Assembly (NCBI GenBank): GCA_958009085.1
Contig: OY253675.1
Coordinates: 62,001-126,000, forward strand
Length of the DNA stretch: 64,000 nucleotides
From: Protoeuglena noctilucae
Taxonomy: Eukaryota
Reading direction: 5' to 3'
Shown: piece after piece, positions 717-58,833 of the stretch
Position numbering within the stretch: the stretch's first letter is position 1
Layout: every line of letters starts with the position of its first letter
Position numbers and translations under genes: made by a program
Notes under the pieces: generated by a model
Told to the model about the DNA's origin: nothing
What the model saw: the letters and a program-made list of their open reading frames with translations, nothing else
The model's database searches: none

Positions 717-3420
717 ATGAGCATCGACGCGCTCCGGACGACGGGCGAGCTGTCTGACGTGACCGTCCGAGTGAAATACCACGATGTGGACAGCAACAGG
801 ATCATCGGGCAGCAGGACATGGCCCTGCACTCGACGCTGCTGGCGGCCAAGTCCGATTGGTTCAGAGACCATATTTTCCGCAACGCGGACGGCGTCACGG
901 CCAGCATGCGCATGTCGGGTGGGGAATAGTGCACTGGCGGAGGCGCCGGGGCCGCGCGCGCCGTTCCGCGGGGAACGCACAGGGTGATGCGCCGTATCTC
1001 TGCTTTTCCCTCGCAGTCCAGTCGCTGGTGCGCTCCATCTACGGCGGCTTCCTCGAAAAGAGTCTGAGTGTGATTGAGGTGCACCTCCCGCACTCCCAAA
1101 AGCTGTATTTCGAGGCCATGGTGAGTGATTAGTACCCGACTGCACACCCGCACCTGCCACCACTTCACCCGCCACCACCCGCACCTCCCTCCCACCCCAC
1201 TCACCCACCTCTGGTCCCCGCCACTCCATCCACCCCCCGTCTCCCCCCCTCCCCAACCCCAGATCGTCTTTATGTACAACAACTCGGTGGATTTAAACGA
1301 GCAGACGTACGCGGGCCTGTTGGAGGTGGCCCACACCTTCCGGGTTCGCGAGCTGGTGGACGCGGTGGTGGACTTCATTTTGGCCCGGCTCACCTGGGAC
1401 AACTGCGTCGAGGCGTGGCTGAATGCAATTGAGGTTGAGCACCCGCGATACGAGGCGCAGACGATGGCGGTGGTGGCAAGGAACTTCGACCGTGTCTATC
1501 GGGCGCCGGAGCTGGGGGATGCGGTGCCGGGGAAGGTGCTGGAGCTGCTCCGGCACCCGGATTTGAACGCCGCGGGGGAGGACGTCGTGTTTGAGATGGT
1601 CAGGTGAGACATGAGGGGGAGGGGGGGTGTTGAGGGGATTGACAAGTGGGGAAGTGGGGTGGGTGGGAGGTGAGCAGGAGGGGGCGTGTTGAGGGGCAAG
1701 TGGGGTGAGCGTGCGGTGAGTGGGACGTGGGCCATGTCGGTGCGTGTGAGTGAGGGCGTGGTGGGTGTGGGAGAGAGTGATTGTGAGGGGGAAAGGCAAG
1801 GAGCTTGCATGTGCCTTGCATGCCACTGCATCCCTCACAATCACACATGCCTGCGTGCACCCATCGCAGGGGTTACATGCAGAACATCGCCTCGCGCCAC
1901 GGCTACCAGATCAGCAGGGAGGAGAACCGGCAGCTGTGGGGGGCAGTGCGGTGAGGGGACAGGCAGCACAGGCTTGGGGAGAAGGGGTCAGCGGGGTGGG
2001 GAGAGCAACAATAGCTTTCTGCTATCGTCGATTTCCCCTGCTCGCTCAGCGCTGTTCCTCGCTTCCCTTTCTCTCCCACCCCCCAAGCCTGCACTACCTC
2101 TCGTTCACTCACCCCCCGCAGCATCCACTACCTCCCTCACCCACTCTCACCACCGCACCACCACCCCTCCCCCTCCGCCCCCGCAGCCTGCACTACCTCC
2201 CCCGTCCGATGCTGGCGGACCTGGCCGACCACAAAGACGTCACTGTGCCCCCGGACCTGGTCACGAGGGCGCTGATCGTGCGGCACAAGTTGGAAGAGAA
2301 CCCAGAGATGATGGGGAGGAGGGAGCTGGCGCCCAGGCAGTCGTACAGGCGAGGGGGGGTGGAGATGGTTGCTTATCTTTGTCGTAAGCCTCCCGTGGGC
2401 ATCTCTCACCGCTCATCAACCACACTCACCCCTCACCCGCCCGTCACCCCACACCTCTCACCCCACCACACCCCTCACACCCCCCCCCCCCCTCCCCTCC
2501 CCCCAGGCGCCTCGACATCGCCCGCGCCAAGCTCCCCTCCGCCCACCACCCCTCCCACAACTACGCCTGGCATGCGGATGACCTGCCCATGGGGTGGTGG
2601 CACCCGGGTCACCGGCAGTACCGAGCAGAGATCTACGCAGCACGGAACACGCTCGAGTGCGAGTGCTGCAGGGAGTTCCGAAAGAGGCCGGCCACACTGG
2701 CCAAGCCCAACGTGAGACGCGGTGGAGAGGGAGGGGAGACGTTGTGTTCTTTCACACCTTGTCTAGCCCTCGCACTCAACTTCATCCCCACTTCCACCCT
2801 CACACTCACTCCCACCCTCACCCCCACCCGCACCCTCACTACCCCCGCCCCTCACCCGCAGACCTTCCAGCCGACCCCTCGCTCCCCGTCCGCACCCCCC
2901 CGCACCTGCTGCGGCCTCTTCCGCCGCCCCACCCCCGCCTCCCAGACATTCCGCGACAACCACGACTCGTTGGGATTCGTGCGGCAGAGCGGGGACGGGG
3001 CGAGGAGCAGCGCGTCGGGCAGCGGGTGGCGGACCCCCCGGGGCGTCAGGAAACTGCCAGAATACGGTGTGCAGGGGTCCGGGGTGTCGGGGACGTCGGC
3101 GAATGGGAGGGAGGCGAGCGGGGCGTGGCGCAGGGCGGGGGGTGACGGTGGCGTCGTGAGGGGCAGCGGGGCGGTGGGTAACAGCGGGGCGTGGAGAGCG
3201 GCAGATCGGTACCGATACCCGCAGGTGAGTGGGGTGGGTGACTGTGTCGTGTGTGACTGTGTGGGTAGTGGCGAGCTGGTGAGAGTGGGGTGGGGACTCT
3301 GGTTTGTGGTGAGCGGGCGAGTGGGGCCCATGATATGGTGGCATCCAATAATGTCGTCCGTGCTCGCAGGACACCCCGAGCGTGGGTGCGTCGGCCGCGT
3401 CTCGGCCCTGGCAGCGGTGA
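717..3420 (+). CDS. BTB/POZ-BACK domain protein (probable CUL3 substrate adaptor), multi-exon
   Basis: Exon 1 'LSDVTVRV...HSTLLAAKSDWF' is a BTB start; later exons give 'FEAM|IVFMYNNSVDL...LLEVAHTFRVRELVDAVVDFILARLTWDNC' (BTB end) and 'VARNFDRV...LLRHPDLNAAGEDVVFEMV' (BACK). About 8 exons join in phase; last exon 3370-3420 ends in TGA. Confidence 0.8.
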
Positions 3421-4047
3421 CTTGCGCAGAGGGGGCCAGGGGAGCTGCGAGATGAAATACAGAAGAAGAGAGAGGGAGGTGGGCCAGCAGGGGCCGCGTG
3501 GATGGATAAGAGTAGGGATAGGGGCAGCGGGAGAGACACGTGAAGCGTGAGGGCTGCTTGGTCACGGTCAGCCACTCACGGCGTGGTGATACAGCGTGTT
3601 AAGTCACTTACAGATACTAGTAATAACTGTCACATGTCATCTGTTTCCATCTGTCGACACGCGTCGTCCCCTCTGCCATGGCCCTACGTCCTTCAACGGG
3701 GGGCGCGCCGCTTTACGTCTGCCGCCGCGTCGTTGCAGCCGCGTCCGCCTCAGCCGCGCGCCTCTCCCTGTGACAGACACTCTATGCCGGGCCGAAAGAA
3801 CACACGCAAGCCGTCCGCAAGCAAGAGCCGCCGCGTCACGGGGTCATGATCGCAGGGGCGCGCGCGTCGCCCCACGCATCACGCACTGCGCCCCCGACGC
3901 CTCTCCACACAAGCACCCGCCCGCACACCTGGCAGCAGCACTGCCACCGGCGCTAGCACACCAGAGGCTACACTGCCGGCACTAGCGCTTCGCCCGCGCC
4001 ACGCCGTGTCGGGGTCGGCCGTCGGCCACCACCGTCGTGTGATGCGC

Positions 4048-6724
<2,677 letters not shown>

Positions 6725-8064: not shown

Positions 8065-8675
8065 CCGCAGGGGGGCTTTGGTGCGTCAAGGTGGCATGTC
8101 ACGCCCTGATCACACTCACAAGGTCGTGAAAGCAGCCAAAGCGTGCCTAGTAACCAATTGCCACGCGACACATTCAACGTTCGCAACCAGGCTCGCAATG
8201 GCCGGCTGCCGCATGCGGCCTGTTAGCCGCACCCTCGCACCGGCGCCCTCCTCCCAGCGCCGCGCTTGTCACCTGCCCGTTGCACCTCGCCGCCCACCGC
8301 TTGCCCACGCAGACCACTCGCATGCACGGCCGTGCGCCCCTCACGTGCGCCACCTCCCCAGCACCCGCCCCGCTGCCGCCCACCACTGCGCCGGCGCTCG
8401 TCCCTGGGCCGCCTGCACACAGCGGCGCTGATATCGGACAGCTGACAGCCCCTGCCTCTCGCAGGGTCCCATGGGCACAGAGCGGGCCTGCTGGCGAGGC
8501 CACAAGCATGGACCTGCGCTATCATGCGCCGCTGGATGGAGCGTCGGCCTGCGCTTGAGGTGACGCCCCGCACCATCAGCCCCGTCGCTGGCCAGCTCCT
8601 CGCCCCGCATGCGCCTCCTCCCACCCGTCGAGAGGGTGACAGAGACGGGCCATGCATGCGGCGCCTGGCAGACCA
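8065..8675 (+). repeat. diverged dispersed repeat: fused copy of the two flanks of the F-box-ankyrin gene
   Basis: 8065-8420 aligns by eye to 22785-23195 (e.g. cacctccccagcacccg-c-ccgctgccgcccaccactg); 8436-8675 aligns to 25564-25812 (e.g. tcatgcgccgctggatggagcgtcggcctgcgcttga, cccacccgtcgagagggtgacag). Same orientation. Confidence 0.8.
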
Positions 8676-11973: not shown

Positions 11974-14186
11974 ATGAAGTTATTCCTCGTCACACACACG
12001 ATCGCCGCGGCGACGGCAAAGGTGCCGGGCTTTGCTCGCGACGCGCGGCATGTCACCGTTTGCGTGACCGCCGCGCAACCGCCGTCCCGCTCGTCCCGCG
12101 CAGATGCCGTTGCATATGATGATCCTTCTGCAGCACGTCTCGACGCCTTCGCCGTCCCCGCCCGCGTTCCGGTGCCGCCAGATCCTCCCGGCCTCCGGCA
12201 CCGTGTCCGTCTCTGTGTGGGACGGGTCTGGAGACGCCGCGATGCTCAAGGATTACCTGGACGGCGTGCTGAACGGCGACGCGAGCCCCGGGGATCCCCT
12301 GTACTGGCGAGTCGCGCGGCTGCGGCGCAGCGCAGCACGATTGCGGGCCCACGACACGTCTTAAGCTGTGAGGCTTGTCTTCGTGAATTGCAGCGATAAC
12401 GCGGTGCATGAGCTCGTGGAGGACTTCATGTGGGGCATCGCGCGGGACATGCTGCGCGCAAGGGCTGCGGGGCGCGTGGCGTCGACGGTGGGGGCGGGGG
12501 CACGGCAGGCCATCAGGTGCGTCATGTGGGCATCGCATGGGCATCGCCGGAATGGTGCGATGTGCGGCGCTGGCTTGCATTTGTGTTCCTAGTCATGCGC
12601 CTCTCTCCTCTCCCTGCATGCTGACTCGCTGACCCATCTCCCTCTTCATACCCCTCTCATCCATCTCTCACTGCGTTCCACCCGTCATCCATCTCTCACT
12701 GCACACCATCTCTCATCCATCCTTCACTGCATCCCCCTCTCGTCCATCTCTCATTGCGTTCCATGTCTCATCGCATGCCCCTGTTGCCCTCCTCGCAGCA
12801 CCATCAAGGGCACTGCAGCCGTGGGCCTGTCCTCTGCCGCCGCAATCCTCGGTGACTTCGACCAGAGACTACAGGTAAGGCATGACCAGAGGCTGCTGCG
12901 GTGTGGGTGACCTGGACCAGAGACTGCAGGCGAGTTAGTGGCCGATGCTGTGTGGGTGACATTGACCAGAGACTGCAGGTGAGACGATGGCAGTGGCCGC
13001 CCCTCTCGCCCACGCCCCCTTGCACGCATCTGACCGTCGCGTCTCTCACACGTCCCACACCCACCACCCCCCACACCCACCACCCCCCTCCCCGCAGGTG
13101 TCCGGCGCCGCCGCCCGTGCCCTCCAGGCCTCCTCCACCGCCGCCTCCCAGGCCCTGCAGATGTCCCGCCGCGCCCTGGAGCACCAGGCCGTGGCGTCCG
13201 GCGTGCGCACCGTCAACGACACCGTCAAGCGCGGGTGGGGGTTCCTGTCCTCCGCCATGTCATCGGTGCTGGGGCAGGTGAGGGGTGGGGTAGTGGCAAG
13301 GGATGCGTGCCGTTGACTATGTCTTCCTGTTGTCAAGCCTGTCCCCCGCGCTGGGGCAAGTGAGCCATACCCTACCGCAAAGGGGCTTTCGTGCTTTCAA
13401 TGACATCTCCACGCCTCCTCACCTCTCCCCACACTGCCCACGCCTTCGTCCTCCCCAGGTGGCCACGGCAGCCACCGACTTCAACGCCCAGTCCTCGGTG
13501 CGCCCTTTCCACTATGGCGATCACGGCGGTGACGACTATGACAATGAGACAGCGGGGGACTACGCTCACGTGGGGCCAGCGAACGAGGGAGCTGCGATGG
13601 GGGGTGACGGGGCGGGGGAGGGGGGTGTGGCTGCGCCCACGCCCGAAGCCGTGATGGCGGCGGCGGCGGCGGGGATGGTGGGCGACGCGAGGGGGGTGGC
13701 GGGGACGGGGGCGGCGGGGTGGGTGCCCGTGGGCCCGCCGCCGCCGATGCCGCAGGTGAGGGGATGAGAGGGTGGGGTGAGAGGGATGGGGAGGGAGTTC
13801 AGGATGGCAAGGGAGGGGATGCGGTATGAGACGTGACGTGGCGTGGCGTGGGTGTGGGCGTGTGATGAGTCATTGTTGGGACTGTTTGATGTCGAACATA
13901 GTAACAACATAGTAACAGTATCTGTCGGTCTCTGTCATCGCAGGCGCCGGCGGCGAGGCTGGGGGCGGCGGCCACGGCTGCGGGTGGCATGGGGGAGAGC
14001 CTGCTGGTGCCCAGTGAGCTTGTGGCGGGGCCTGCGCGCGGGACCGAGGGGGAAGCGGGTGCGCATGCGGAGGGCGCGGGAGGGGCGAAGGGGGATGCGG
14101 GGGAGGAGGAGGATTGGGAGGGAGATTTGGCGGGGGGAGACGACGAGGGCGACGATGGGAGCGGGGAGGAGTGGCTGAATCAATGA
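11974..14186 (+). CDS. hypothetical protein, ~8 exons, acidic C-terminal tail
   Basis: Codon-biased exons bounded by AG/GT(GC): MKLFLVTHTIAAATAK; ...MLKDYLDGVLNG...; ...ELVEDFMWGIARDML...; ...GDFDQRLQ; VSGAAARALQ...WGFLSSAMSSVLGQ; VATAATDF...; ...EEEDWEGDL...EEWLNQ*. Confidence 0.6.
12634..12775. repeat. intronic degenerate tandem repeat (ccatctctcactgc-type unit)
   Basis: Recurring ccatctctca(c/t)tgc / catccatc units visible directly. Confidence 0.6.
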
Positions 14187-22624: not shown

Positions 22625-22784
22625 CAAGACTAGAGACTCGACAGACGGGATGATTGCTTGCAGGGACGGGTGTGCGTGTCATGGTTTCAAGGCCACACAT
22701 GGTGCAGACCGTGGCAGTCGCACGCTGCGGCATGCATGGGAGGCGGATACCGCCACACAACGGGCGTTGTCTCTGTCTGCGGCG

Positions 22785-23195
22785 CCAGGGCTCTGGTGCG
22801 GGGATCACCAGTGATCCTGTCACGGCCTTATCTCACTCAGAAGGCCGCGGGGACAGCCAAAGCCATGCCAGATAGTCGAGACAAGGCGGACATGTGGTCT
22901 CGGTCAATCAACTGCCACGCGTGCTTCAGCAGTCGCAACCAAAGGCACGCATTAGCGCAAACGAGGCGCCGCATGGCAAGGCTGCTATTAACACCCTCCC
23001 TCCCGCACCCTTCCCCCTCCAGCGCCACGCTCGTTGCCAGCTCGCTGCCCACCGCCTGCCCACTGCCTGCCCACACAGACCAGCCGCTCCCATGCTCGAC
23101 CGCACGCCTCCCTCACGTGCACCACACCTCCCCAGCACCCGCACCGCTGCCGCCCACCACTGGGCCAGCGCCGGTCCCTTGGCCGCCTGCACTAA
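22785..23195 (+). repeat. dispersed repeat, 3' flank of F-box-ankyrin gene (homologous to 8065-8420)
   Basis: Shared blocks such as tgtcacg-cct-atc-cactca-aagg and ccgctgccgcccaccactg. Confidence 0.75.
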
Positions 23196-23341
23196 GCAGT
23201 GCAGTGAGTCGCTGTAAGACCCACGCCACGCTTGCAGCTGCCCATGCCTGCTGCTGCCACCTCCTGCACCCATCCACACGCTGCAGCACATGCCGACTCT
23301 GCCCCGCTCCCACGCCCCACGCCCTCACCCTGCATGCTTGG

Positions 23342-44400: not shown

Positions 44401-44730
44401 CATCCCCCACTCACCTACATCTCACCTATCACTCCCATCACCCCCCAACTCACCCCACTCACCTATCCCACCTATCTCTATCACTCACTGCCCCCCAACT
44501 CCCCCATCCCCCAGGACCCCACCGCCCCCACCCCCGCTTCCTCGACCGTCGTGGCCGGTCGCGACGTGCAGCCCGTCCGCAACCATCTCTTCATATACCC
44601 ACCCAAAGACGCGGAATCGGCATCGCGGCTGACGTATGGGGATAGAGCGAGGGCGGTGAGGGGGGAGCATGTGTTGAGTGTGACGCCCTATGGGGGGTGG
44701 AGCGTGGAGGGGCGGAGTGGGAGGGGGTAA
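29476..44730 (+). CDS. very large multi-exon hypothetical protein (helical/coiled-coil segments separated by Gly/Ser/Arg-rich disordered regions); may be more than one gene
   Basis: Chain of codon-biased exons with compatible phases (e.g. EKARGLMQWVETGQLMSK; ETRLFLDLFKDNAML; SLWSSHFAMEGLSLYS; DREAAARAVLRKRQQDFDDG; AQQELMKDKFAAVVKA; NHLFIYPPKD). No recognisable domain; a few apparent frameshifts at G-runs. Confidence 0.55.
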
Positions 44731-45121
44731 TTGATGAGTGATGGGTGTGATGAGGGCGATGAGCGGACAAGCCACTTAATCTATGCTGAAGATAATAATT
44801 TTACTTGGTTTACTGTTATTGTGAGTTTTTAGCTGTAGCAGGGCTGTGATAGACTAGCTGGTTAACAGACGTGATCGTGGCTGAGAGATGTCATCCCTGT
44901 GCCGGTGAAAGCGAAGTAACAGCACTCACTACCAATCCTATCAATTATTGCCACGGTCAGAGTCTCAGTATCCCTCTCTTCAATCGCGGAACACAGCCAT
45001 CTACAACCCTATCTAATACGCGTACCCACCACCACCCTCACTACCACCCTCCCCCATCTCACCACCACCCCACCACACCCACACCCTCCCTACCACACCA
45101 ACCCACCCCACCCCTCCCCAT

Positions 45122-48100
45122 TCACTTGCGCCCCTTTTTCGCAAACTCCTCCCTCAGATTCCGCCTCACTCCCCGCGCTTCCCCACTCTTCCCTCCATCC
45201 CCACCCCTCCACTTCCCACCACCCCCGCCCCTAACCCCACCCCCCGCACCGCCACCCATCGCACCAACATCGCTATCATTATCCAATTCCACTCCCACTG
45301 CGCTATTCCCCTCCTCATCTGTCGGCTCGTCGTCCCCGCCGCCACCCTTCCCGGCATTCCTGACACCGCCGCCTCTGACACCACCTGTTCTGACACCGCC
45401 GGCTCTGGCGCCAGTCTTGGCGTTTGCCGCGGGGGCGGTGCGCCCGGCCTTGGCAGCAGCGCCGCGTTGCTTGCCTCCCCGTTTGCGCACAGCAACGGGG
45501 GCAGTGGCAGCGGGGGTGGCAATGGCAGCGGGGGTGGCGATGTGGGCGGGGGTGGCGGCAGCGGTGGCTGTGATGCGGGGGGCGGTGCGGTCGAGTGGCT
45601 GCGGGTGAGGGGGAGTGGTTGGTTGATGGGAGTGGTTAGTTGATGAGGGTTAGGGGTTTGAGTAACATGCCACCACCCTATGCCATCTTCGTATCACCAT
45701 GCTCCGCTTACCACCCACACCCCTGCATGTCTCCCACCTATCGCACCAATCATTCCCACTCCACTATAGCTACTATTATTAATCCCTTATAGATGCACCC
45801 CCTCACCTGCGCCACTGCCGTGACCTGGCACCCCGTGCGCCTCTCCACCCACCGTCCACCACTCACCACTCACCACCCACACCCCACCATTACTCTAATC
45901 AACAATTACTCAAACTGTCATATCTACTTCTCACCTGCGCCAGCGCCGTGACCTGGCACCCCGTGCGTTTCTCCACCCACCGCCCCACCGTGAACACCCA
46001 CGCCGCCCCCCTCTCCCCCCCCGCCAACGCCTCCTCCACAATCACGCTCTCCGGCAGCCATGCCGAGAACAGTCCTCGCCCGCTGTGGCCCAGCCGCAGC
46101 TGCTTCAAGCGGCCCAGGTAACGTAACGCGGGGAATTCGAACTCGTCCACGCAGCCCGCCTTGAACTGCGGATTTGAATGAGATGGGGTTGATTTGAATG
46201 TGGGATTCGGTGTGCTGCAGTTACCATCATGCATATATGCATGATGGCGATAGATGATGACTTGATCATAACGTCAACATGACCATTATTGTTATCATAA
46301 CAGAACACATCCCTCCCCCCTCACCCTCCTCGGCCCCATGCGCGGCTGGATGAGACCCGAGGTGCCCCTCTCTCCCGTGATCTCGAAATGCACCTGAGAT
46401 GGAAAAGGCATAAGGATTAAGTTGATTAATGACTGTCACCAACCGTCGCCGCTCATCACAACCCATCACCACATCCCAATCCACTTATCCATTCATTCAA
46501 ATCCCCCACCCCCATCCACCCCCCACCTGCGCCCCCGTCCCAACCCACCTACCACAACACATGACCATACCTAAATTCATCCATTCAAATCCCCCACCCC
46601 CCATTCAACCCCAATCCAACTCCCCACCTGCGCCCCCGTCCCCGCCCCCGCCCCATCATCACAACATGCCAATCCATCGATCTCTCATCTCTCATACACC
46701 CAAATACCCCCCACCCAACCCAACCCCCCACCTGCGCCCCCGTCCCCGCCCCGCACTTCCTTGCCGTGGCAAACGTGACCCTGTACCCCCGCAGCCTGGC
46801 GGCCACCAGCTCATCCGCCTGCGTAGATGCGTCCGCCACAGTCACTGTCGTCTGCGCGTAGTGCACGCGATCGGAACCCAGCACGCTTTGCAGCGTGGCG
46901 TGGCAGGGGAAGCGCTGGGTGAGCGGGCGGCTGTCGTGGACGTGGGAGACGGTGATGGCCTCCAGGGGCCAGCGAATCTGGGGGTGGGAATGATATGGAA
47001 TAAACGTGTTACTGATGAGTGGTGGTTTAGATTTGTACTGCAACATATGGATTACACCCATATCTGGGAGACGGTCCAAAGCTCCTCCAACCCTTACTCG
47101 CATGCGCATCTCACCACCCCCGTCTCTCATAACAGCCAATCATATATAGCCATTCCCACACCCCATCTCACCTCGTGCACCCCCCTCATGAGCACGTGCA
47201 TCTTTGTCAGCACGCCCATCTCCCCCGCCGCCTCCGTTTGAAACGCGTCCGTCTGACCGGGGCGGAAAAGCCTGCCATTCTCGTCCGGCCACCTCCCCGT
47301 GCAGTTTCCGGCGAACAACTGGCGCCACCCCACCCCGTCCGGGTATCGATCCGAGTATAACAGGACATCCAGATTGTCAGAAACGGACTGACCGGGCTCG
47401 TCGCCCGTCTGCACCTCGAACGTGACCGGATAGGCGAACCCGGGACCTGTGATATTCCTATCGTAGTCCCCGGCATTCTGGCCATTTCTGGCAGTGTCGC
47501 CAGAGAGGGCGGAGGCGAGGGCGTTGGGCCTCTGTGCCGCGGCTGCCAGGAATGCGTCGGAATCGAGTGCCAGAGGAAGGAAGGGCTCGGATGGGGAGGG
47601 GGAGAGGAGCTGGGGGGGACAGAGAGGGGGGTGATGGGTGAGGGGGTGAGATGGGGTGGAGTTGGGCGAGGGGAGCGATGACTGGGTGACGATAGTGGTG
47701 TGAGTGATAAGTAAAATGGAACGGGGTGAGGGGTCTGAAGAGAGCTGGTGCAATCTCCACTCGCTTAGTTGATAACAATACACACACACTTATATACACG
47801 CACAACCCACACCCCACACTCGCCTTGTCGCATCGGAACACGGCCGTCTCCCTGGTAGTCAGGCACAGGATTTGAATATCGACCAGATGCCACTCGAAGG
47901 GACCCCAGAGCTTGAGATGCAGGCGGTGCATGGGGCTGGGGGGGGAGAGAGTGGGTGAGGGAGTGAATGAGGGACTGGGTGAGAGGGTGAGGGAGCGAGA
48001 GGGTGTTTACATGAAAGGGACGGGAGGAGTAGAGGTGCGGGCAGTGCATGGGTCAACCCCCACCCCATCCCATCTCACCACCCCCCACCCCATCCAATCC

Positions 48101-51100
48101 CTCACCTGACCGCGGCGTCGTCTGCAATCGTCAACAGCACAACACAACAGTGCACCCATCCCACCACACCCCATCCATATCCCACTCCCCACCATCTCAC
48201 CTGCCCGCGGCGTCGTCGGCGAATCGGCAATACAAGACAGTCCCACCCCATCCAACCCCACCCCATCTCACACCCATCCAATTCCCATAACATCCCAAAT
48301 CGCAATCCGTCACCTGACCGCCGCATCGTCTGCGAATTGGAACTCGAGCGGCCGCCGGTGGCTCAGCACCCCATCCCCCGGGGCTTCGTGCCACTCGGTC
48401 TGCTGTTCGTCTCCCCCCGACACCATCATGCTTATTTGGCGGGGGGGCACGCGGGTCTGGGGGCCCGAGCGGATGCTCACGCGATACCTGAGAGGGAGGG
48501 GGGGGGGGGTTGAGAGTAGCAATGGGGGTATGGGTGAGGTGAGAGATGGGGTGCGGGTGGGGGTGGCAGTGGGGTGGCAGTGGGGGGGGTGGCAGTGGGA
48601 GTGGGGGTGGCAGTGGGGGTGGCAGTGGGGGTGGCTTAGCAGTGGGGAAGCGGGGGCAATCACGCGCTGTCCCCGATCCCGATATGGAGTTCCAACAAAC
48701 ACACACACCCATTCATTGCAATATCAACCATATACAAACACAACCACTCCCCAAAGCCCCTCACCCGTGCTCTGCCGCCCCCTCTGCCCTCCGCACCAGC
48801 CGCACCGCCCCCCCCCTCCCCTGCCCCGCCACCGCCGGCGCCAATCCACCCGCTGCCGGGCCGAAGAAGTACTGGGAGCCGTCTGAGTATATCAACACCA
48901 TCTTGACGCACTGCCAGGTTAACCCCACGCCGCCCTGCGATGTGACGAGGGGGGTGTTGGGGTGGGGGGTTGTTGGGATGGGTGTTGGGGTGTGGGGTGG
49001 GGGCAGAGTAGCATGGAGTAGCATACAATACAATAGTACTATACTGTATGCTACTTATATATTCCATACACTATATGCATTAACAGTGGATAATTACAAC
49101 ATGATTATGACATGACACCCCATCTCCCCTAACAACCCCATCACCCACCCCCCTCTCATCTCCCTTCCCCCCTCCCCCCCCTTCATCTCACCTGCCCCGC
49201 CCCGCCCGTGTCCATTTGAATCTCCACGAACTGAGGGTCGCCGACGTCGTGGTAGGGGATTTCGAATTCGTCCCTCGCCCCCCGCTGGAAGGGGAGCGTG
49301 CCCGGTTTCGCGATTAAGGTGCTGTAGTCGGTGCGATTCGAACTCCCGACCACGGAGATGGCCACCGAGTTGGGCGGCGCCGAGGCGTCTGGGCGAGTGC
49401 CGGTGGTGGCCAACACGCGCGTGACTTGCGGTTTCCTGGCGCCAGTGTCGGCGGCGGGGGGTCCGTCCCGGGACTCCATGCGGCGCTCCAGGCTGTGGTC
49501 GGGGGAGAGCCAGTCCTGGGGGAGAGATGGGGGGTTTTATAATGGTAATTGTGATAATAGTGATAATACTATGATATACGATGATGGCTAGTGAGTGTGC
49601 ATCCATGCGGCGCTCCAGGCTGTGGTCGGGGGAGAGCCAGTCCTGTCATGTCCTGTGATTGCGAGATTGCTAAAGCATACACACACCCATCATAACCAAA
49701 TTACATTACCAAATAACACCAACTCATCGACCATCCCACCCCTCACCCGTAGATGGAACCACCTCGTGTGTTTCTTTGTCCTATCGGTCCCCTCGTGTGT
49801 GGCCTCTATATGCGATAAGTGCCACGTGTCGTCCACCTTGCCATCGGGGCTGAGCAGCGCAGTGCCCGGCTGAAGGCGAACCGACATGGCCTGCGAGTGA
49901 GGGTGGGGGTTGGGGAGGGGGTGATGATTATATAATTTGTTTGTTTATTATTACTATTATTGATCAATACTCTTAGGTAAAGAGTCCCTGCTCCGACCCG
50001 GTCGCATATCTTACCATATCCACTGTCCATATCTACCATAACTATCAATATCCACCATTACATATGAATACAATTACCCAACCACTCAAACTCGCCTTCA
50101 TCCTCCCCACGTCCCTCCCCTGCACCCCCAGGAACGCCTGCTCCGACCCGGTGGCGAATCCCCGGAACCCCGGCCTGGTTAACTCCAGCCATCCCGTGTC
50201 GCCGTTTTCACCATAAACATTCAAGAACACGGGGGAGTTGGTGCCGGCGCCGGGGATGTTGGTCGTGAAGACCTGAGGGGGTGAACAGTATTACTTATTG
50301 CTTGCATAACAAAACCTGATACTGATGGTAGCAAGCGGCACTGATAGTAAGGCTGCCTTAAGTTATTGCAAGACCATACCATGTCAAAAGGTACAGCTCG
50401 CCCGGCATGTGCAAGCACATACACCCATCACCCCACTCCCATCCCACTCCCCATCAATAAAACTCGCCTTGAACGTGTACGCGCACACCCCCTTCCTGGC
50501 CGCAGGGTCCCCCCCCTCCGTCAACACCCTCTCGCTCCTCACATCGCCCGCCCCCTGCCCCAGCCAACCATCGCCATGCTCCGGCACGTCGGCCCAGAAC
50601 ACAAAGGGACGCGGGAGGCCGTTCGCGGTCGCTGTCACGCGCCGCAGTCGCCAGGAGTGGTTGCCGGGGCCCGGGCGCAGCCCCACAGTGAGGTGGGTGG
50701 GGGTGCCGATGGGGGAGGGGGAGATGACGGTGACGGAGCTGCGGGAGTGGGTGGGTGTTTATTATATATGATTATTACTAGTACATATATATTAGATGCG
50801 TATGTCAACTGATAGCGTGGGTGAGGTGGGTGGGGGTGCCGATGGGGGCGGGGGAGGTGACGGTGACGGAGCTGCAAAGGGAGTGGTGATGAAAGGGAGT
50901 GGTGATGGGTGGTTGGTGGTTAAGGAGTGGTATTCATCATCATCAGTGGTATTAATATTTATTAATTATCAGTTCCTACTCCTTCCCTCTCACGGCGACG
51001 CCCCCCCGCGAACCCCTGCACATCCGCATCATCAATATCACCCGTATTGATATATATCATTATATTATGTATAACTATACAGTACATTTACCAACCCGCG

Positions 51101-54100
51101 ACTCACCGCGCCGTCCCCCCCGCGAACCCCTGCGCGTGTGCCACGTCCTGCGCCCCCGTCTGCCCCAGCGTGCCCTTTAAGTTGACATATGCCTGGCTGG
51201 TGGTGCCGGAGAGGGTCTCGAATTCCAAGGTATATTCGGTGGGCTTGGAGCCGGCCTGGAGGCGGGCCTGGGTGTCAGGGGAGGGGGATGGTGGAGTTAG
51301 ATATAGTTATGGTTATCATGATTATTACATTCCAGCGTGTACTCGGTGGGCTTGGAGGCGATAGTAATAATCACAACCCACAACTACCACCCACCCATTC
51401 CCCCTCACCTCTCTTGGCTTCTCCCCCCCCAGCCACCCCTTGCAGTGGAAGTACCACTCACTCATGATACTACAAACATCCATAATACTAGTAATAGTAA
51501 CTTGATAATCATAACCCCCTCACCTCCCTGGGCTTCTCCCCTCCCAGCCACCCCTTGCAGTGGAAGTACCACTCCTTATCCCCGCTCGCCACCCTTATCC
51601 AATCCAGCTGCCACGCGTCCGCGCCCGCCCCCCCCTCCAGCCCCACCACGCACTCCCGCAGGTCGCCCAGGGGGGGGAGCTCCCTGCGATTAGAAAGAGA
51701 TGGGTTGGGAAAATGTTATTATAATAATATGCGTATTGTTTATTACATGCTCTGCAGCTGAACTGCTATCCATTGCCTGTCCAAGTTGTCTTGCCGCCCC
51801 CACCCCATCGTGCTATTTACTTACTGCACTATTAATTGTCAGTGCTATTCATCATAGTAATAGTAACCCCATCCTCAACTACTCGCCAACCACCCCACCG
51901 CACCTGTCGAAGTTATCGATTTGTCCCGGCCGGAACGGGGGCTGCCTATCGCTGTCGATCAGCTCCACTCTCCCCTCACCTCGTGCAATAATGGTATTAC
52001 TCAGTATTTACTAGTAATACTAGTAATACTATTACTGCAAGATACCACTCCCACCGTACCTGTCGAAGTTATCCACTTGTCCCGGCCGGAATGGTGGTTT
52101 TTTATCGCTCTCGATCAGCTCCACCCTGCCGCTGCTCCCCTGCGCCCCCGTCAGCGCCACCACCACCGTCGCCACCGTCCCCGCCTCCCGGTCATCGCCC
52201 GTCTTCACGCTGATGCGGTACCTGGGTGGGGATTATGAATGGGGATTGTGGGTGAATATGGGTTTATGGGACTATAAACGACGATCAGTGGTCGTCGCCC
52301 GTCTTCACGCTGATGCGGTATCTGAATGGGGGGGATTATGGGAATAGATATGGGATTATAAACGAGGATGAATGATTGTGGATGTTTGAAAGAGATAATG
52401 ATGAACGGTGCATTGTTCATCCCAGCGACCGTGTTGGCACAAACAGATTATACACATTCAGTACATCCACATATAGTTATAGCTTATACATCACAACCAC
52501 CCCCTCGCCTCTGCTTCTGCGCTTTGGGCGCCTCCTTGGCCCTCCCCATCTCCAGCGTGCGCCTCTCCCTGCCCATCACCGCCCTGCCAGTAAACCACGC
52601 CTCGTCAATGATTTGGTTATTCCGGCTCTGCCGCACCCGCACGCACTCGGGCACCCAGTCGGGCGACTCGCCCTTGCCGTCGATGTCCAGGATGACCTGG
52701 GAAGGGAGGTGGGGGGAGTGAGACTTATTAAGTAAAGTAACAGTTCAACTATCATCATTAATAACTACAATTATCAGAGATATATCGCAATAGCTACTTA
52801 CCTGGTAAATTCGCAAACTCGAATTTACTCATAATTCACTGCTATATAGCAAATGCTGTCAGTAAAACACATCGCAACTGACAACCCATCGCATCGGACA
52901 TCGCATCGCTCCCCCCACCCTTTCCATCCAATCTCGCCTTGTTCATCTTGCCCACTGGCTTGGACGACATTTTGAAGAAATCCTTCTGCGCCCTCCGGAA
53001 GGGGACGGACGCGTCTTGCGGGTGCAGCTCCATCTGACCGGTGCGGCCACCCTCGCCCCTGGGGGGAGAAGAGGGAATGATGATAAGAGAATGATGATCG
53101 TGGTTTGGTGCACTGATGATCCCCGATGGATCACGCAACATCACCCCGACATGACTGGTACACCACCACCACCCGCACAAGACAACCCACTACACCGCCT
53201 TTACCACAAGCACTACCAGCCCACATTACAACCACCATCTCCCAACACTCACTCCACAGTTAACGTGACCGCGCTGGTCGTGGTGGGCCGCCTCTCGTCC
53301 GCCGTGTGCACCTCCACCTCGTAATCCGCCGACTCGTCCGCCTGACGCGGGCGGTCTGACGCCAGTAAACGCTTCGTCAGTCCGTCGGCGTCGGACAGCC
53401 ACGCGTGGCAGGGGAAGTAGTAGGTGTGGTTCTGGACCTGAAAGAAGAGAGAGGGAAGTGGAAAGGGTTTTATATTTAATAATAAATAGGAGATGATACG
53501 GTGCGTGTGGCTCTGGGCCTGAAGGGACAGATGCGAAAAGAGGTGCTCATTCTGAACTTAAGCAAGCCCAAGCGCATCCCTATTAACACCCACTCGCCTT
53601 CACCACCACCTCCTGCAGCTTCCAGGGCTTGCGGCTCCCCGCCGGCAGCAGCTGCACCGTCGCCGCCTCGAGCGGACCCACGGGGGGGCCGTCCCTCACA
53701 AACTCGTCCCTCCCGCCCCGCTCGAATAATTTCCCGGAACTGTCCTCTAATTGGAAAGGGCCCACCGAGTCGCGGCCGGAGTGCAGCGTCAGCTTGACCT
53801 CCCCATCCGTGGCCGCGCCTGCGGTTGATGGATAATGTTTATGCAGTTGATGATATCCACCGTGGTCAGTCGATGGATAATGGTGGTCAGTCGATTGATA
53901 GTAATTGGGTGAAAGTGATTATCGGTTTTATTGGTAGGATTGATTGATGGATAGATGGGGAGTGTCGATGAACTGACAGTAGGTAGCAACTAGTCCTTTA
54001 CGGAAACCACCGTCAATAGATAGTAACTAAATAACAACTAAATAGCTAAGCATACACATAACAAGCGCCTCACCCCTCTCGTCCGCGGTGAGGATGCTGA

Positions 54101-57100
54101 TGAAGTACTGCACGACCTTGGGCCTCGTATCGATCGGACCGGCATGCACCTCCAGCGTTCTCTCTAGCGTGTTATCCGATCGGCGCAGCCACTGCCCGCA
54201 CAGGAACTGGTACACCCGCCCCGTCGATATGTCTTTCACGGCCACTCGCTCCAGCAGCCAGTCCGGGCTCGTGCCCAGGCCATTGTGGCCGATCACCAGG
54301 CGGCTGCGATTGGATTGGGTGAGAGGGAGAGGGAGCGTGATGGTGGTGACATGGATGTCACATTATGACTGTTATGTTGTTATTATGATGCTTTTATAAT
54401 GATGTCAGAAAAAAGTACTAATAAAATTATTACAATGTTTACATTATAGTTGTATATTTACAACTATAATGAATTATTGCCAACACATCCATCCCATCCA
54501 CTCACGTGAGTTCCCCCACGTCAGGGACGTTGTCGAGTCGGAATCGTGCTGTGTTGCCCCTCCGGAAGTCCCCCTCATGGCAGGGCAGAGAGAGGGTGCC
54601 CGTGGCCCCGCCTGTCCCAATGAACTTCACGTACACGTCCGCGCTCGTGCCTGCGAGATATGGTGATAGTACTAGTATTGATAGTAGTATTGATAGTTAT
54701 GGTAGTAGTGATGGTGATATTAATAGTAATAGTAATAAAATAGAAATAAAATAGAAATAGAAATAGAAACAGAAACAGAAATCAAACAACACTCGCCTGC
54801 CCCCTGCGCGTCCCGGGTGACGATGTGTATCTCGAAAGCCTTGGTCTGCCGGTTGCCCTCTTGCGTGACCGGGATGCGCACCGTCGTCCCCGCCAGCACC
54901 GCAGAGGCAGGGGCGTCAAAGAAGTAACGGTCGCCCGAACGCAGGTCTGGGATGATAGGATATGAAGGGGAGAGAATAGTTGCAAGAGCAGTTCATGTCA
55001 AGCATTTATTGTATTTCTATTTGTAATAGTTAAATCGATGAAATTATATACAAACTGTTACGAGTTGCATGGCAGTCGAACACTGCCATAACCCTATAAC
55101 ATGCCAATAACTTCAATTTTGTAACAATAACAAGTACATTGCCACACACCCCAGACCCTCTCACCGGTGATGCGTCCGTGGTCAATGCCCCACCCGCGCT
55201 CCCCCCGCCCCCGCGGCAGCTTGATGGTCAGGAACTGCAGCCGGCCCAGCGCCCCCGCCTCGGTCAGCAGATGCTGCGAGCTGCTGTTTCTGGCGAATCC
55301 CCCGGGGGGGGGCTGCACGCGGTGGTGGGTGCCGGGGCCCCGGTCGCCCTCCAGCTGCGGGCGGGGCGATTTGAATGGGGGTGGGGATTTGAAAATTTGA
55401 ACGAAGATTTGGAAATAGCAGTGAGTGGGATTGTGGACGAGAGTGGCTGGAGTGATGGGCAACCCTTGGTGGTCTCTCTCATGAGCGCGACGGTCGGCAG
55501 TGAGAGGCGTTTATCATAAAATAAGTAACATAATGATGAAAGTATTAATTATAACACCCATCAGTATATTATCCCACCTGCACGACGACCTCCGCGTCCC
55601 ACTGCGACCCCTGGGCGTCCTTGGTCTTGAACGCCACCTCGTACTGATAAGACTCGAGCTCGGTGGCCTGGGAATCTCGAATGAGATGTAAACTATTGTG
55701 AGCAATAAAGTCATTATTGATAGTTGCATCTGCAATATCTACAGTTGTCCTTATAATATGATGTAAATCTAATTTCAATTACTATAAAATTTACATACTC
55801 ACGCATAATTATACTGATAATTATCATACATTATCACCACTTCGCCTCCCTTCATGGCCCTCCCCCCTCTCCCCTCGCCTGTGCGTAGAGGTCTGCGACG
55901 GTGGTGTGGTCGGCCCCCCTCGTCTTGCTGAGCCACCTCTGGCATAGAAACGTCCACTCCCGCCCCGTCGCCATGTGCAGCACGCGCACCGACTCCAGGT
56001 ACCAGTCGGGGTGGCGGCCGGAGCAGTCGTGCCACACACGCAGGATCTGGGGGTGGGGTGGGGTGGGTGGTCAGGGATGAGGGTGAGTGGTGGGATGGTG
56101 AGGGTGAGGGTGAGAGGTGATAGATGGGGAGTGGTGCTGGCACATCAACCTTTCATCATCCCATCACCGTCTCGCCTGTATGTCTCCGATGTCTTTGGGC
56201 ACCTCCACTCGGAAAGTGTCTGCCATGCCACGCTGGAAGGGGGGCTGGCCACTGGGGGTGGAGAGGGTTGAAAGTTGGTGGTGTTACACAGTAGCGATAC
56301 ACAACACGAAAATCATATGCCTCTGAGTTGGGCATAGCAATCGACCACATCACTCCTCAACCCTCAATCGCTTATCTCGCTCATTCCTCTCACCTGACGG
56401 GGCTCGCGAGCGCGATGGACCCCAACACGCACATGCAACAGCAACCCAGTCAGCATTACTACCCATCTCCAGTGCCACTCTTCTAACCTGACCGGGCTGG
56501 CCAGGGCGATGGACCCCGACGTCCCCTCGTCCCCCACCATCTCCGCATAGACGCGGGACGAGGTGCCCGCCTCCGCCTGCTGGCCCGTGCGCACAGTGAA
56601 CTCGTATACTAATGCGCCGCGGCTGCGGTGAACATGACGAATAGCTATAAGTATAGTAATAAGTATATGAGTAACTATCGACAGCCGATCGTACTGGCTA
56701 TGCAGCTTTGTCTCGCACCCACCATACCAACAACAACAAACATCGCACATCGCACAGCGACGCACCCCACCACCCCACCCACCCCCCTCACCTCCCGCCC
56801 CCTCCCCCCACCCCACCCCTCCTCGGCGACCACCTCATTCCACTCGCGCTTGCGTGATGCGGCAGGGGCGGCAGCGTGAGGCTGAGGTCCAACCCACCGT
56901 GCGCGTCAGCCTGCCTGACCGCGTGCAGGGCGCAGTCGCGCCAGGCGTCGCTCAGGCGGCGCATCCACAGGCGGGCGTCCGCTGCGAGTGAGGGAATGTG
57001 GAATGAGTTAGTGACAAAAGGGGTGAGGTAGAGGATGATGCATGGCGCATGCACAGGCGAGCGTCTGCTGCGACTGAATAGAGCTTAAATAGACATGGGG

Positions 57101-58833
57101 CCACCAGCGACGGTCGACAGTCTGCAGCTGACCACTCACCTGGTGTCTCATCGTCAAGTCAATCCACCCCATCAATCACGTTCCCTCAGCCGTATCGCTG
57201 ACCCCTCACCCGGCGTCTCGGCCGCCAGGAAGAAGGTGTGCACCATCACATGGACATGATAATCGTGAACCACACCCCATGAATACCACAATCACACCAA
57301 CTCACCCGGCGTCTCTGCCGCCAGGGAGAACGTGTGCACCACCACGTCAGTACAACAATCCAATTATTACTGATAGTATCCACTCACTACTATCAGCATC
57401 AGCATCACGAACACAAACACTCACCCGGCGTCTCTGCCGCCAGGAAGAACGTGTGCACCCCGCACGTGACGGCAAACACCCTCCCCGCCAGCCTGGCGTG
57501 CTGCACCCCTCCCTCCTCGTCATCACCCCCAATCCGCAAGTCAGGGACGGGACCGCGGATGCGACTGGTCAGCTGGCGAGGGTCCACCGCCTCAATGGGC
57601 TCGCGGGGGGGGGCCGGGCCGCGGGCACGGGGCGGGGGGGTGGCGGAGGTGCAGGCGGGGGCTGCGGGTGGGGTGGGGTGGGTGGGGATGGGTGGGGTGA
57701 GCGCGGGGCGGGGGGGTGGCGGAGGTGCGGGCGGGGGCTGCGGGGGTGGGGTGGGTGGGGTGAGAGTGGGGTGACAGGGTCAGGTGGGTTGCGTTCGATG
57801 GTTGCGTGGGTGGTGAAGAAAGGGTGTGGGTGGTTGCGGCTGCGACACTGCAACAAGGCCGATGCGATTCCCTGCATAGCGCACTACGCTCGACTGTATC
57901 AGCTATGACTCGTGACTGCACCAACTATGATCATTCGTGACTTTGCCCGCTTGCCTGGTTCGTAGTCTCCGTCGTCGAGGGGCAGCCGCGGTGGCGATGC
58001 GCGGGTGGCGGAGCGGGGGCGGCGGGGGAGGTTGGCGGGCATGTGACGCACGGGGAACTGCGGGCACGGATGGGGGTAGATGAGAGATGAGAGAGTGTGT
58101 GATGCTGGCAGTGCATGTGACGCACGGGGAACTGCGGACACAGATGGGGATGGATTGGAGATGAGGGAGAGTTAACATGGCATGTGACGCATTGCGGACC
58201 GTTGAGGATAAGAGAGACAGATGGATATAAGAGTGACAGGGGTTGGCATGGCATGTGTCGCAGCGTGGACAGGTGTTGATTACTCCACCATGCATTGGCC
58301 GCATCACAGCGCATGGTAAGATAGATAGCGACTTGCCTGGTCAAGGGGCAGGTACTTCAGCCCGGCCCTGTCCTTGCTCTGGTTGCTGCGGTAGTAGCAG
58401 AGGCGGTCGGGCAGGAGCACGAACTGCGGGAGAGGACGAGGACGAGTCAGCGGATGGCTGTGTTGATGACGACGGGCCATCATCGCTGCTGCGTTGGGCT
58501 GGACACTCGCACTCACGTAGCGACGCTTCCAGCTATGGCCGGGGGCGTCGTTGGTGAGCTTGTACAGCCATCTGCGGTCGCAAAAAGCGAGTTTATTCAC
58601 GAAACCACAACAATACGTCGAAACGACGTCGCCGGCGGGTCAGGCATCCGCCCACACCCTCACCCCTGGTGCAAAACCCGCTGCGACACCTCCGTGGTGT
58701 TCTGCATGGACAGCCAGGTGTCATCCTGGTGCGATGCGGACATCCCGCGCAGTCGAGGGGACCGGCCGGGGCGTCCCGGGTCTGCGGGACGCAACGGGAG
58801 ACCACGCATCTCGCGGGACGCGCTCCGACTCAT
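45122..58833 (-). CDS. N-terminal PH domain + ~12 tandem PLAT/LH2 domains (LOXHD1-like), >30 exons
   Basis: PH: 'VLHQG|WLYKLTN...SWKRRY|FVLLPDRLCYYRS...VHTFFLAAETP|ADARLWMRRL'. PLAT repeats: 'YEFTVRTG...AGTSSRVYAEMVGDEG...FQRGMADTF...HDCSGRHPDWYLESVRV...WTFLCQRWL', 'IGHNGLGTSPDWLLERVAV...YQFLCGQWL', 'GAGTNSPVFLNVYGENGDTG', 'FQRGARDEFEI', 'FKAGCVDEFEF...LGRLKQLRLGH'. Last exon ends ...FAKKGRK*. Confidence 0.85.
48560..48635 (+). repeat. intronic minisatellite (GGGGTGGCAGTG)n
   Basis: Five or more ~12-bp units; same motif as 16317-16392. Confidence 0.7.
54737..54781 (+). repeat. intronic microsatellite (AAATAG/AAACAG)n
   Basis: aaatagaaataaaatagaaatagaaatagaaacagaaacagaaa. Confidence 0.8.

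Follow-up and report, generated by a model that had tools for sequence, protein, structure and literature searches.

Extra copies of exon ends in the introns of a 64-kb green-algal window, and the codon-structured differences between copy and exon

Introduction

Why would introns hold extra copies of the exon ends that they adjoin, and why would such copies differ from the exons mostly at silent sites? Both questions are raised by a stretch of 64,000 nucleotides (contig OY253675.1, positions 62,001 to 126,000), which we call the window and whose own coordinates are used throughout. In it, a sequence-only reading had described intronic "echoes" of exon ends: donor echoes, which repeat the end of an exon with its splice donor, and acceptor echoes, which repeat an acceptor with the start of an exon. 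As the differences from the true exon appeared mostly synonymous or conservative, that reading proposed that the echoes had passed through protein-level selection, by (a) cycling back into the exon through gene conversion or collapse and re-duplication, (b) capture of exon ends from divergent alleles, or (c) an alternative or recursive use in splicing. We find that the observation is confirmed, and that the proposal drawn from the codon pattern is supported statistically within one window. All counts below come from this one 64-kb stretch.

Results

Exon ends recur in the adjoining introns

Exon borders were taken from gene models made with our own hidden-Markov gene finder in a stiffer-penalty version, which gave 100 introns and 200 exon borders. 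These models match spliced RNA at all eight borders of the four introns found in one RNA contig (set X9, record 26; introns 42415-42792, 43262-43647, 43822-43994 and 44315-44514). Self-BLAST, run without a low-complexity filter, then filtered for complexity and limited to pairs 30-700 nt apart, returned 23 complex local direct-repeat pairs, against 0, 0, 0, 0 and 0 in five block-shuffled windows. A junction scan aligned up to 80 terminal exon nucleotides plus 8 intron bases to the adjoining intron, with a threshold of 16.5 placed just above the maximum (16.0) of 200 reversed-intron controls. Scores above this threshold were reached at 26 of the 200 borders, about one in eight, and at none of the controls. 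Repeated masking and re-searching recovered 37 copies at the 26 borders, one to three per border. Four doubtful borders with six copies were excluded, three of them as G- or C-rich low complexity (33963, 46732, 57661) and one as an internal exon piece (50096), and the remaining 31 copies were kept for all counts. Their exon-derived part measures 13-71 nt (median 27), and they lie 55-284 nt (median 113) from the exon.

The sequence-only reading had spoken of about 25 junctions in five genes, with one to four copies each. The number of junctions stood; the genes came to six rather than five, and the masking scan gave one to three copies. Its placement of donor copies downstream and acceptor copies upstream was confirmed in the junction-anchored scan. 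By gene, echoes were found at 1 of 12 borders in the BTB gene, 1 of 18 at 12-14 kb, 1 of 24 in CAND1, 5 of 28 at 31-38 kb, 3 of 16 at 39-45 kb, and 15 of 58, about one in four, in the PLAT-repeat gene (13 kb, minus strand). The tubulin, ankyrin/LRR and 29-31 kb gene models had none at 38 borders.

As a control for the choice of terminal bases, whole exons of 76-423 nt were aligned to both flanking introns. Copies in the downstream intron touched the 3' end of the exon in 15 of 17 cases, and copies in the upstream intron touched the 5' end in 10 of 16; from the far end of the exon only G-rich low-complexity matches were obtained. Introns with echoes were longer than those without (median 290 versus 202 nt, p = 4e-5). 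The copies take up 13-71 nt of exons that measure 76-423 nt and carry one splice signal at most; none has both an acceptor and a donor.

Wild DNA carries the copies, and spliced RNA at one junction uses the site next to the exon

Copies of this kind resemble allelic variants set side by side, as an assembly or haplotype-merging artefact would leave them, and such an artefact had been named beforehand as what would undo the observation. Contigs assembled independently from two wild metagenome samples (X5 and X6) retain the extra copies: they cover the arrays at 40746, 43648 (in part), 45935, 50738, 51107, 51267, 52060, 52221, 56981 and 57425 with 0-4 other letters. Not one letter differs in X5 records 1 (40104-41714), 5 (49616-51457) and 6 (51545-54704) or in X6 record 12 (51543-52417), and X6 record 8, like X5 record 1, spans the 40746 array with no difference. 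Because independent wild contigs run through the arrays, the echoes are not an assembly artefact, and we give that explanation next to no credence. Over 19.5 kb, the listed differences between wild contigs and window amount to 2 substitution places and 8 small insertion or deletion places. Two differences recur across runs: at 39818, seven bases are missing in contigs of all four runs, and at 55113 a T>A change is present in every covering contig of X5, X6 and X7, the last being a metatranscriptome run.

RNA junction evidence comes from the 15 joints listed out of 79. The only spliced RNA contig among those listed, X9 record 26, has 43261 spliced to 43648, the acceptor copy that comes last in a row of four; since this exon-proximal acceptor is the one used, the three other copies there are intronic. 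Record 28 of the same set lies exactly on the exon 49192-49515 and not on its copy at 49645-49602, which is consistent with use of the proximal site. The X7 contigs listed in 39691-46075 run unspliced through introns (e.g. 40095-40704 and 45728-46075) and are thus uninformative on splice-site use; they represent either DNA carryover in the library or abundant unspliced RNA.

Differences between echo and exon follow codon structure

Reading frames were taken from the gene model and are independent of the differences; a replacement was called conservative at a BLOSUM62 score of at least 0. The 31 copies hold 88 differences, of which 14, 15 and 59 fall at codon positions 1, 2 and 3. They change 77 codons: 45 synonymously, 18 conservatively, 13 radically and one to a stop. 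When differences shared between copies were counted once, the distribution was 14, 15 and 55, with 41 of 73 changed codons synonymous. Random placement put 33% of differences at position 3 (maximum 48% in 2000 runs) and made 22% of changed codons synonymous (maximum 39%). Earlier hand counts were reproduced at 32751 (5/5 synonymous), 51524 (3/3) and 43493 (3/3).

The pooled comparison with one constrained plus one neutral copy had been singled out by the sequence-only reading as its decisive test, and it returned an excess of position-3 change. In our form of this null, mutability was GC-weighted with a transition bias, the exon line let through every synonymous change and 0, 10 or 30% of replacements, and each setting was run 300 times. 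The simulated position-3 share had means of 0.50, 0.48 and 0.45 and maxima of 0.63, 0.60 and 0.58, against 0.67 observed; the synonymous share had means of 0.43, 0.41 and 0.37 and maxima of 0.59, 0.55 and 0.54, against 0.584 observed. Both shares lie above the null means, which speaks against neutral pseudo-copies. A conditional binomial, under which the rate at positions 1+2 is at least half that at position 3, gave p = 7.5e-4. The position-3 share stayed at 0.64-0.69 in a jackknife by junction, and taken junction by junction, position 3 has the most differences in 12, draws level in 3 and falls behind in 4. CpG or GC-biased mutability was rejected as the cause of the position-3 excess, as the GC-weighted null falls short of what was observed.

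The copies can be divided by their number of position-3 differences, a split made on the outcome variable and descriptive only. The 17 copies with at least two such differences diverge by 0.265 at position 3 and 0.034 at positions 1+2, whereas the other 14, with none or one, diverge by 0.038 and 0.057. Copies of this latter group either lack differences altogether or have them spread flat and at random (I>T, S>A, F>S, G>V, Y>C, a stop, a 1-nt gap). The comparison does show that silent divergence is uncoupled from random decay. In the 17-copy group the replacements are conservative, and many of them require two base changes. Codons with two changes were all conservative: AAA>AGG (K>R) in two cases, AAA>CAG (K>Q), GTG>ATC (V>I), CTG>GTA (L>V), CTG>ATC (L>I), TTC>CTG (F>L) and TTC>ATT (F>I). 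One echo, the copy at 43480, has a 12-nt gap that stays in frame. G<->C swaps make up 19 of the 59 position-3 differences, and third-position GC (GC3) is 0.88 in echoes versus 0.86 in the exon copies; to judge by these letters, swaps and GC3 would be the spectrum of long silent-site evolution under GC3 constraint and not of raw decay. The 17-copy group looks like two working genes about 0.3 silent substitutions apart, rather than an exon beside its decaying copy.

Could the echoes nevertheless be junction duplications made in place and decaying neutrally, with the silent excess produced by the constrained exon line, unmodelled differences in site rates and a small sample? Such duplications are known, and they fit the border anchoring, the longer introns and the use of the proximal site. 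The 14 copies with random-looking or zero changes agree with decay, as do the private changes of the 40746 array, which are spread across all codon positions, and the observed synonymous share lies just below the highest value of the most generous null (0.584 and 0.59). The position-3 share, however, exceeds all 300 simulations at each of the three settings, with the binomial probability given above, and divergence at positions 1+2 does not rise with that at position 3. Neither the GC3 of 0.88 and the consensus donors that echoes retain, nor a 44-nt copy at 49645 that is identical to its exon start between unrelated flanks, is what decay would leave. We consider neutral decay in place a rather unlikely account.

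Mechanism (a) addresses the codon pattern directly, in that frequent conversion between echo and exon, or collapse followed by re-duplication, would expose echo mutations to protein-level selection. Identical or near-identical copies beside unrelated flanks (49515, 35159, 33128) would fit recent, patch-limited conversion, and copying from echo to echo within arrays shows turnover. Conversion would, however, erase synonymous differences in both directions and replacements only from exon to echo, and would therefore lower and never raise the synonymous share (an argument, not a computation). In addition, a position-3 divergence of 0.265 in 17 copies would hold exchange below about the mutation rate, too rare to impose selection, and the few wild-contig differences in 19.5 kb suggest low diversity and weak second-order selection. 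On this argument mechanism (a) is disfavoured, and we hold it to be improbable. Of the earlier proposal, the statistical side survives a formal null in one window; among its mechanisms, (a) is disfavoured as said, (c) found no support in the sequence, and (b), capture from a divergent homologue, would fit best.

Echo donors are strong, and a role in splicing is improbable

On the coding strand the 100 introns share one build, seen for example in 40141-40429, 41671-41991 and 42415-42792: a donor CAG/GTGAGGGG (the slash marks the splice point), a G/T-rich start, an AT-rich core and a C-rich tract ending in GCAG/G. Base pairing might be possible between the G-rich start and the C-rich end. The AT-rich core often contains ACTAGT-like words.

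Echo donors are nearer to the consensus CAGGTGAGGGG than the donor in use in 12 of 17 copies. Taken by junction, the best echo donor scores higher than the used one in 8 of 11 cases, equal in 2 and lower in 1. For acceptors the reverse holds, the echo scoring below the used site in 11 of 14. Neutral decay does not predict such strong donors, which would point to a function of some kind or to a working site as their recent source. Selection might keep echoes as RNA elements: U1-binding or decoy donors, splicing enhancers, or alternative or recursive sites. A splice-signal role would constrain about ten bases, however, and not 20-70 exon bases in a codon pattern. As to the recursive-splicing signature, none of the 17 donor copies reaches the 5th percentile of true acceptors (3.4 bits; best copy 2.1). 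Only 7 of 31 spacings are divisible by 3, no copy has both of the splice sites that a cassette exon needs, acceptor copies are the weaker ones as said, and the RNA contig uses the proximal acceptor at 43648. Mechanism (c) finds no support in these counts, and maintenance as RNA elements of any of these kinds is in our judgement a poor bet. Two ways in which copies might be translated were rejected as well: in-frame read-through, given the 7 of 31 in-frame spacings and a 40746 spacer that opens with a stop, and use as cassette exons, for want of a copy with two splice sites.

Likeness ends near the splice signal in most arrays

The statement that the exon part stays recognisable and the spacers mostly do not was upheld: exon-derived parts are 90-93% identical, and identity over the 50 nt that lie towards the intron is 60-63%, close to a baseline of 56-58% between unrelated introns (95th percentile 72%). 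Rapid decay of low-complexity sequence is not the whole reason for such unlike flanks: at 49645-49602 a 44-nt copy is identical to the exon beside an unrelated spacer and unrelated flanks. Head-to-tail units that are alike on the intron side as well occur in few arrays only (84% at 16701, 86% at 43648 and 78% at 41992). In the 40746 array the echoes have common upstream bases that the exon lacks, and they were therefore copied from one another.

An inserted element would give a different reading of the same layout, in which the spacer is the insert, the copies of the exon end are a long target-site duplication and the distal copy is the original junction. The identical 44-nt copies at 49515 do flank 83 unrelated bases; in donor arrays, a G-rich stretch of the kind that usually opens an intron comes after the distal copy, and the donor in use is atypical (GTGACG, GTAAGG, GTACGG, GTTAGA). 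Against insertion, no repeat family was seen among the spacers in the window, which has only three non-local same-strand repeats of at least 40 nt, all of them outside spacers; the duplicated part ranges in length from 13 to 71 nt; and copies identical at birth would leave the codon pattern unexplained. We think insertion improbable too.

A proposed two-layer explanation

Tentatively, and at odds somewhat short of even, we favour the explanation that the echoes are local duplications spanning the junction, and that a subset owes its sequence, by copying or by overwriting, to a diverged functional homologue. The first layer, junction-spanning duplications tolerated through use of the proximal site, is largely shown by the observations above. 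A short local duplication of DNA that spans an exon-intron junction could persist if the site adjoining the real exon is spliced, as it is where RNA shows it, so that the extra copy with its own signal leaves with the intron. Duplications wholly within an exon would break the protein and those wholly within an intron would go unseen, and for that reason the visible copies would be anchored at borders. Some copies would be plain head-to-tail duplicates, some would have been copied later from each other, and some would be patches with unrelated flanks.

For the second layer, we infer a diverged functional template behind the codon-structured subset. About 17 of the 31 copies would have diverged along a path almost wholly under coding constraint and not by decay in place. 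The most economical source would be a diverged functional homologue of the same junction, be it a paralogue or an allele carried by a distant lineage or haplotype. By one route, a backward-slipped template switch during break repair or replication would lay the homologue's exon end beside the resident one; by another, misaligned gene conversion would overwrite an older echo with the homologue's exon end. In the mirror case the exon would have been replaced and the echo would be native, with the same picture as the result. Homologue introns being unalignable, likeness would end just past the splice signal, and one would expect about 27% silent-site difference, conservative replacements, a splice site of working grade and exon-like third-position GC. 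A diverged template would account for the silent and conservative differences, the kept GC3 and splice sites, the in-frame gap and the end of likeness just past the splice signal. The 17 copies selected on position 3 have the signature of homologue capture, with silent sites diverged and positions 1+2, GC3 and splice site kept, and their divergence at positions 1+2 (0.034) is no higher than that of the other 14 copies (0.057).

Several points weigh against the two-layer explanation. No diverged homologue came to light: the wild contigs match the window almost letter for letter, so that a haplotype about 10% different in exons is not evident in the two samples, and searches of metagenome contigs with the PLAT exon and with the CAND1 exon found no relative. 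A search of 1.84 billion proteins with the PLAT exon returned none closer than 48% identity apart from a fragment of its own protein. The two classes of copies were split on the outcome variable, and the data comprise one window and 88 differences, with an excess over the most generous null of about 3 standard deviations. Exons 10% apart recombine poorly. The three states at one codon of the 12874 junction need more than one source or extra changes. Finally, parsimony in the 43648 array puts three position-3 changes on the exon line and at most one on a copy that is a clear in-place tandem duplicate, a distribution that a foreign source fails to explain. Paralogous PLAT repeats of the same protein, tried as the source of the echoes, were far too different.

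The foreign template can be taken further. The echoes may be a fossil record of another lineage's exons, with the region, and perhaps the whole genome, a mosaic of two long-diverged functional haplotypes; we regard this as rather unlikely. Template switching between haplotypes, for example of a mating-type-like kind or with a sister lineage, would, at each backward slip in an exon, leave the exon end and splice site of the other haplotype in the intron. If this were true, the echoes would allow one to read an unseen partner genome and to date the exchange. In a bolder variant, intronic echo cassettes would still exchange with exon ends, like the silent cassettes of diversification by gene conversion.

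Individual echoes

With echo and exon side taken together, the regions not evident from the coordinates below are 2080..2201, 16675..16846, 32645..32800, 35506..35642 and 41900..42017 on the plus strand, and 45802..45985, 46519..46752, 48098..48340, 49475..49645, 50688..50875, 50989..51133, 51401..51574, 51896..52130, 52190..52324, 56388..56520, 56958..57073, 57205..57467 and 57625..57744 on the minus strand. On the plus strand, the first echoes are acceptor copies at 2080-2100 and 2114-2136 (scores 16 and 18) before the exon start at 2187 of the BTB/BACK gene, with one codon changed from CTG to ATC (L>I). Donor echoes at 12906-12930 and 12955-12983 follow the exon end at 12874 (region 12851..12983); one codon reads TTC, CTG and ATT (F/L/I) in the exon and the two echoes, which have a CTA>CTG change in common. 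Behind the CAND1 exon end at 16701 lie donor echoes at 16742-16776, a head-to-tail duplicate with its intron side 84% alike, and at 16823-16846.

In the 31-38 kb region, all on the plus strand, the acceptor echo 32645-32702 of the exon start at 32751 differs from the exon part by five changes, all synonymous, and its acceptor scores equal to the used site (13.0 versus 12.9). Two copies are free of differences: 33034-33051, which repeats 33133-33150 behind the exon start at 33128 (18/18) and has no adjoining acceptor, and 35044-35067, which repeats 35174-35197 behind the exon start at 35159 (24/24). The donor echo 35606-35642 of the exon end at 35537 carries K>R and Y>C, a stop where the matching stretch gives out, and a donor of the consensus form CAGGTGAGGGG. 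The excluded G-rich matches at 33936..34117 (+; exon end 33963) are doubtful low-complexity sequence, with a score of 18.5 against the control's 16.0.

The plus-strand donor array 40709..41200 follows the exon end at 40746; three copies end at 40842, 40941 and 41030, and a fourth, decayed, lies at about 41150-41176. A repeat search recovers 40709-41200 as a family in which ...ATCACCGCCATGGAGGACAG/GTGAGG occurs five times. Two of these four echoes (40816-40842 and 41150-41176) have a peculiarity: the codon preceding the match is, in the exon frame, ATG where the exon has GAG, probably by chance. The acceptor echo 41900-41928 (+) of the exon start at 41992 (score 24) carries AGC>AGT and CGC>CTC. 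In the acceptor array 43399..43708 (+), copies start at 43407, 43480 (the one with the 12-nt in-frame gap) and 43556, before the used exon start at 43648; the repeat search gives 43373-43678 as a family of four copies of CCGCAG/CCATYSTRGCACA....

The remaining echoes lie on the minus strand, beginning in the PLAT-repeat gene with the donor echo 45857-45802 of the exon end at 45935, which has GGG>GGA, AAA>AGG (K>R), GCG>GCA and CTG>GTG (L>V). The exon end at 48314 has two donor echoes, 48227-48197 and 48125-48098, which share GAT>GAC and GCG>GCC, and both their donors are nearer to consensus than the used GTGACG. The acceptor echo 49645-49602 of the exon start at 49515 is identical over 44 of 44 nt, with the 83 nt between the copies and the flanks unrelated. 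Replacements alone are found in the acceptor echo 50875-50821 of the exon start at 50738 (I>T and S>A, zero synonymous changes), and a single 1-nt gap shifts the frame of the donor echo 51019-50989 (exon end 51107). The copy 51360-51329 of exon bases 51253-51222 (exon start 51267) has four synonymous changes plus G>A at its edge; in the donor echo 51459-51401 (exon end 51524) all three differences are synonymous and the intron side is 54% alike. The donor echo 51974-51896 of the exon end at 52060, in a PLAT repeat, has 11 differences in 71 nt, with four synonymous codon changes beside E>D, K>R, K>Q and V>I. Further echoes are the acceptor copy 52324-52290 (exon start 52221; GAT>GAC), the donor copy 56426-56388 (exon end 56488; four synonymous changes plus S>L at the edge, with an echo donor GTGAGA nearer to consensus than the used GTTAGA), the acceptor copy 57073-57044 (exon start 56981; found by self-BLAST and junction scan), and the donor copies of the exon end at 57425, namely 57347-57300 with F>S and G>V and 57244-57205 with two synonymous changes. 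Excluded on this strand were the doubtful low-complexity copies 46648-46622 and 46541-46519 (G-rich donor copies, exon end 46732) and 57744-57701 (C-rich acceptor copy, exon start 57661), and the copy 50005-49987 of internal exon bases 50155-50137, which is not at a border.

Genes and other repeats of the window

The window, with a GC content of 0.51-0.72 in 2-kb steps, is occupied by dense, intron-rich eukaryotic genes, and its DNA recurs nearly letter for letter in sequencing runs labelled with one organism and in marine metagenomes. Pfam families in long open frames are tubulin, BTB/BACK, redoxin, CAND1 (TIP120), PLAT, ankyrin/F-box, LRR and reverse transcriptase; scans of the window with Rfam and for tRNAs gave no matches. 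In a protein search the beta-tubulin exon is 97-99% identical to green-algal tubulins, and from these matches the source is judged to be a marine green alga, the tubulin match resolving green algae and nothing finer. The sole match in a protein search with the CAND1 exon was the window's own protein, which the atlas assigns to the CAND1/HEAT family.

GC content is 0.51-0.61 at 44000-58000, across most of the PLAT-repeat gene, versus 0.64-0.72 in the first 30 kb; the drop coincides with AT-rich intron cores and the top echo density (15/58 borders). Next to this most echo-rich gene lies a retroelement with an RVT_1 open frame (E = 3e-23) at 59373-61067 (+), in a wider region of 58300-64000. Three collinear same-strand repeat pieces of 206, 174 and 46 nt, 78-88% identical, connect 8097-8656 with 22818-25801; as the pieces at 22818-25801 fall within the ankyrin/F-box gene or close to it, the repeat may be a partial gene duplicate. 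Intronic arrays with a 12-nt period, (CCACCCCCACTG)n and the complement (GGGTGGCAGTGG)n, are present at 31755-31911, 16316-16389 and 48557-48635. At 48595-48635 many metagenome contigs of unlike sequence end or loop back, and the motif is probably common in the genome or the community.

Discussion

Intragenic duplications are regarded as one origin of new introns and splice sites and are usually observed singly. With echoes at about one border in eight, and one in four in one gene, many such events become open to study side by side, as a population. Should the pattern at silent sites extend to the whole genome, intron DNA preserves versions of exons that evolved under protein constraint, which would mean either that this abundant marine alga has had unseen exchange with a diverged haplotype or lineage, or else an intronic constraint that current models do not predict, or an unrecognised mutation bias between exon and intron. 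On the practical side, consensus splice sites on the copies mislead gene finders: an earlier, over-fitted version of our hidden-Markov model predicted hundreds of tiny exons, some of them 5-nt exons built on echo splice sites.

Comparison with known systems

In the literature we found no account of border-anchored partial exon copies at such density or of their codon-structured divergence, in a search that left most subscription journals outside. Recursive splicing uses ratchet sites, in which an intronic AG/GT junction is preceded by a pyrimidine tract. Echo donors share the intronic AG/GT junction with these sites; they differ in that none of the 17 donor copies is acceptor-like.

Templated insertions made by polymerase theta end joining or microhomology-mediated break-induced replication are, in the excerpted text of the sources, likewise copies of tens of bases taken from about 100-300 nt away, sometimes in several rounds (PMC8421209, PMC7407515). 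Copies templated from the same molecule would be identical at birth and then decay at random, whereas the codon-structured subset of echoes needs a diverged template.

Introner or transposon insertions with target-site duplication were reportedly described by Huff and colleagues in 2016. These elements resemble the echoes, as far as the excerpts of the sources go, in occurring in marine green algae, in an intron-linked duplication of a few exon bases and in a duplicate that supplies a splice site (PMC9860276, PMC12130899; for Micromonas, PMC3879977). Introners form families of similar elements with short duplications of fixed length in those excerpts, whereas the echoes have no spacer family in the window and measure 13-71 nt (PMC9860276, PMC3879977).

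Tandem exon duplication also places exon-derived sequence with protein-like conservation in a neighbouring intron, according to the excerpt of Ivanov and Pervouchine (2022; PMC9013439), and intronic exon copies with protein-like conservation appear too in the excerpted part of a preprint on SCN-alpha (10.1101/2025.08.16.670673). Tandem exon duplicates as described in the former excerpt are whole exons with both splice sites and mutually exclusive use (PMC9013439). The echoes are 13-71 nt long, have one site and form no cassette.

The nearest described process is internal gene duplication with splice signals. Internal gene duplications that include a splice site were reportedly found by Gao and Lynch in 2009 and by Hellsten and colleagues in 2011. 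In contrast to duplicates of this kind, most echoes are alike only in the exon part, the intron side being 60-63% alike against 56-58% by chance. Internal duplications are moreover, in the excerpted source, head-to-tail and alike throughout, and a new intron arises from an exonic AGGT; the echoes lie in existing introns and carry codon-structured differences (PMC3443670). The likeness is nonetheless close, since in that excerpt an internal duplication including its splice signals is a direct-orientation duplicate within the gene whose extra copy is spliced out, leaving the coding sequence unchanged, (PMC3443670). The echoes likewise are direct duplicates within the gene that include splice signals, and at 43648, where RNA shows it, the extra copies are spliced out.

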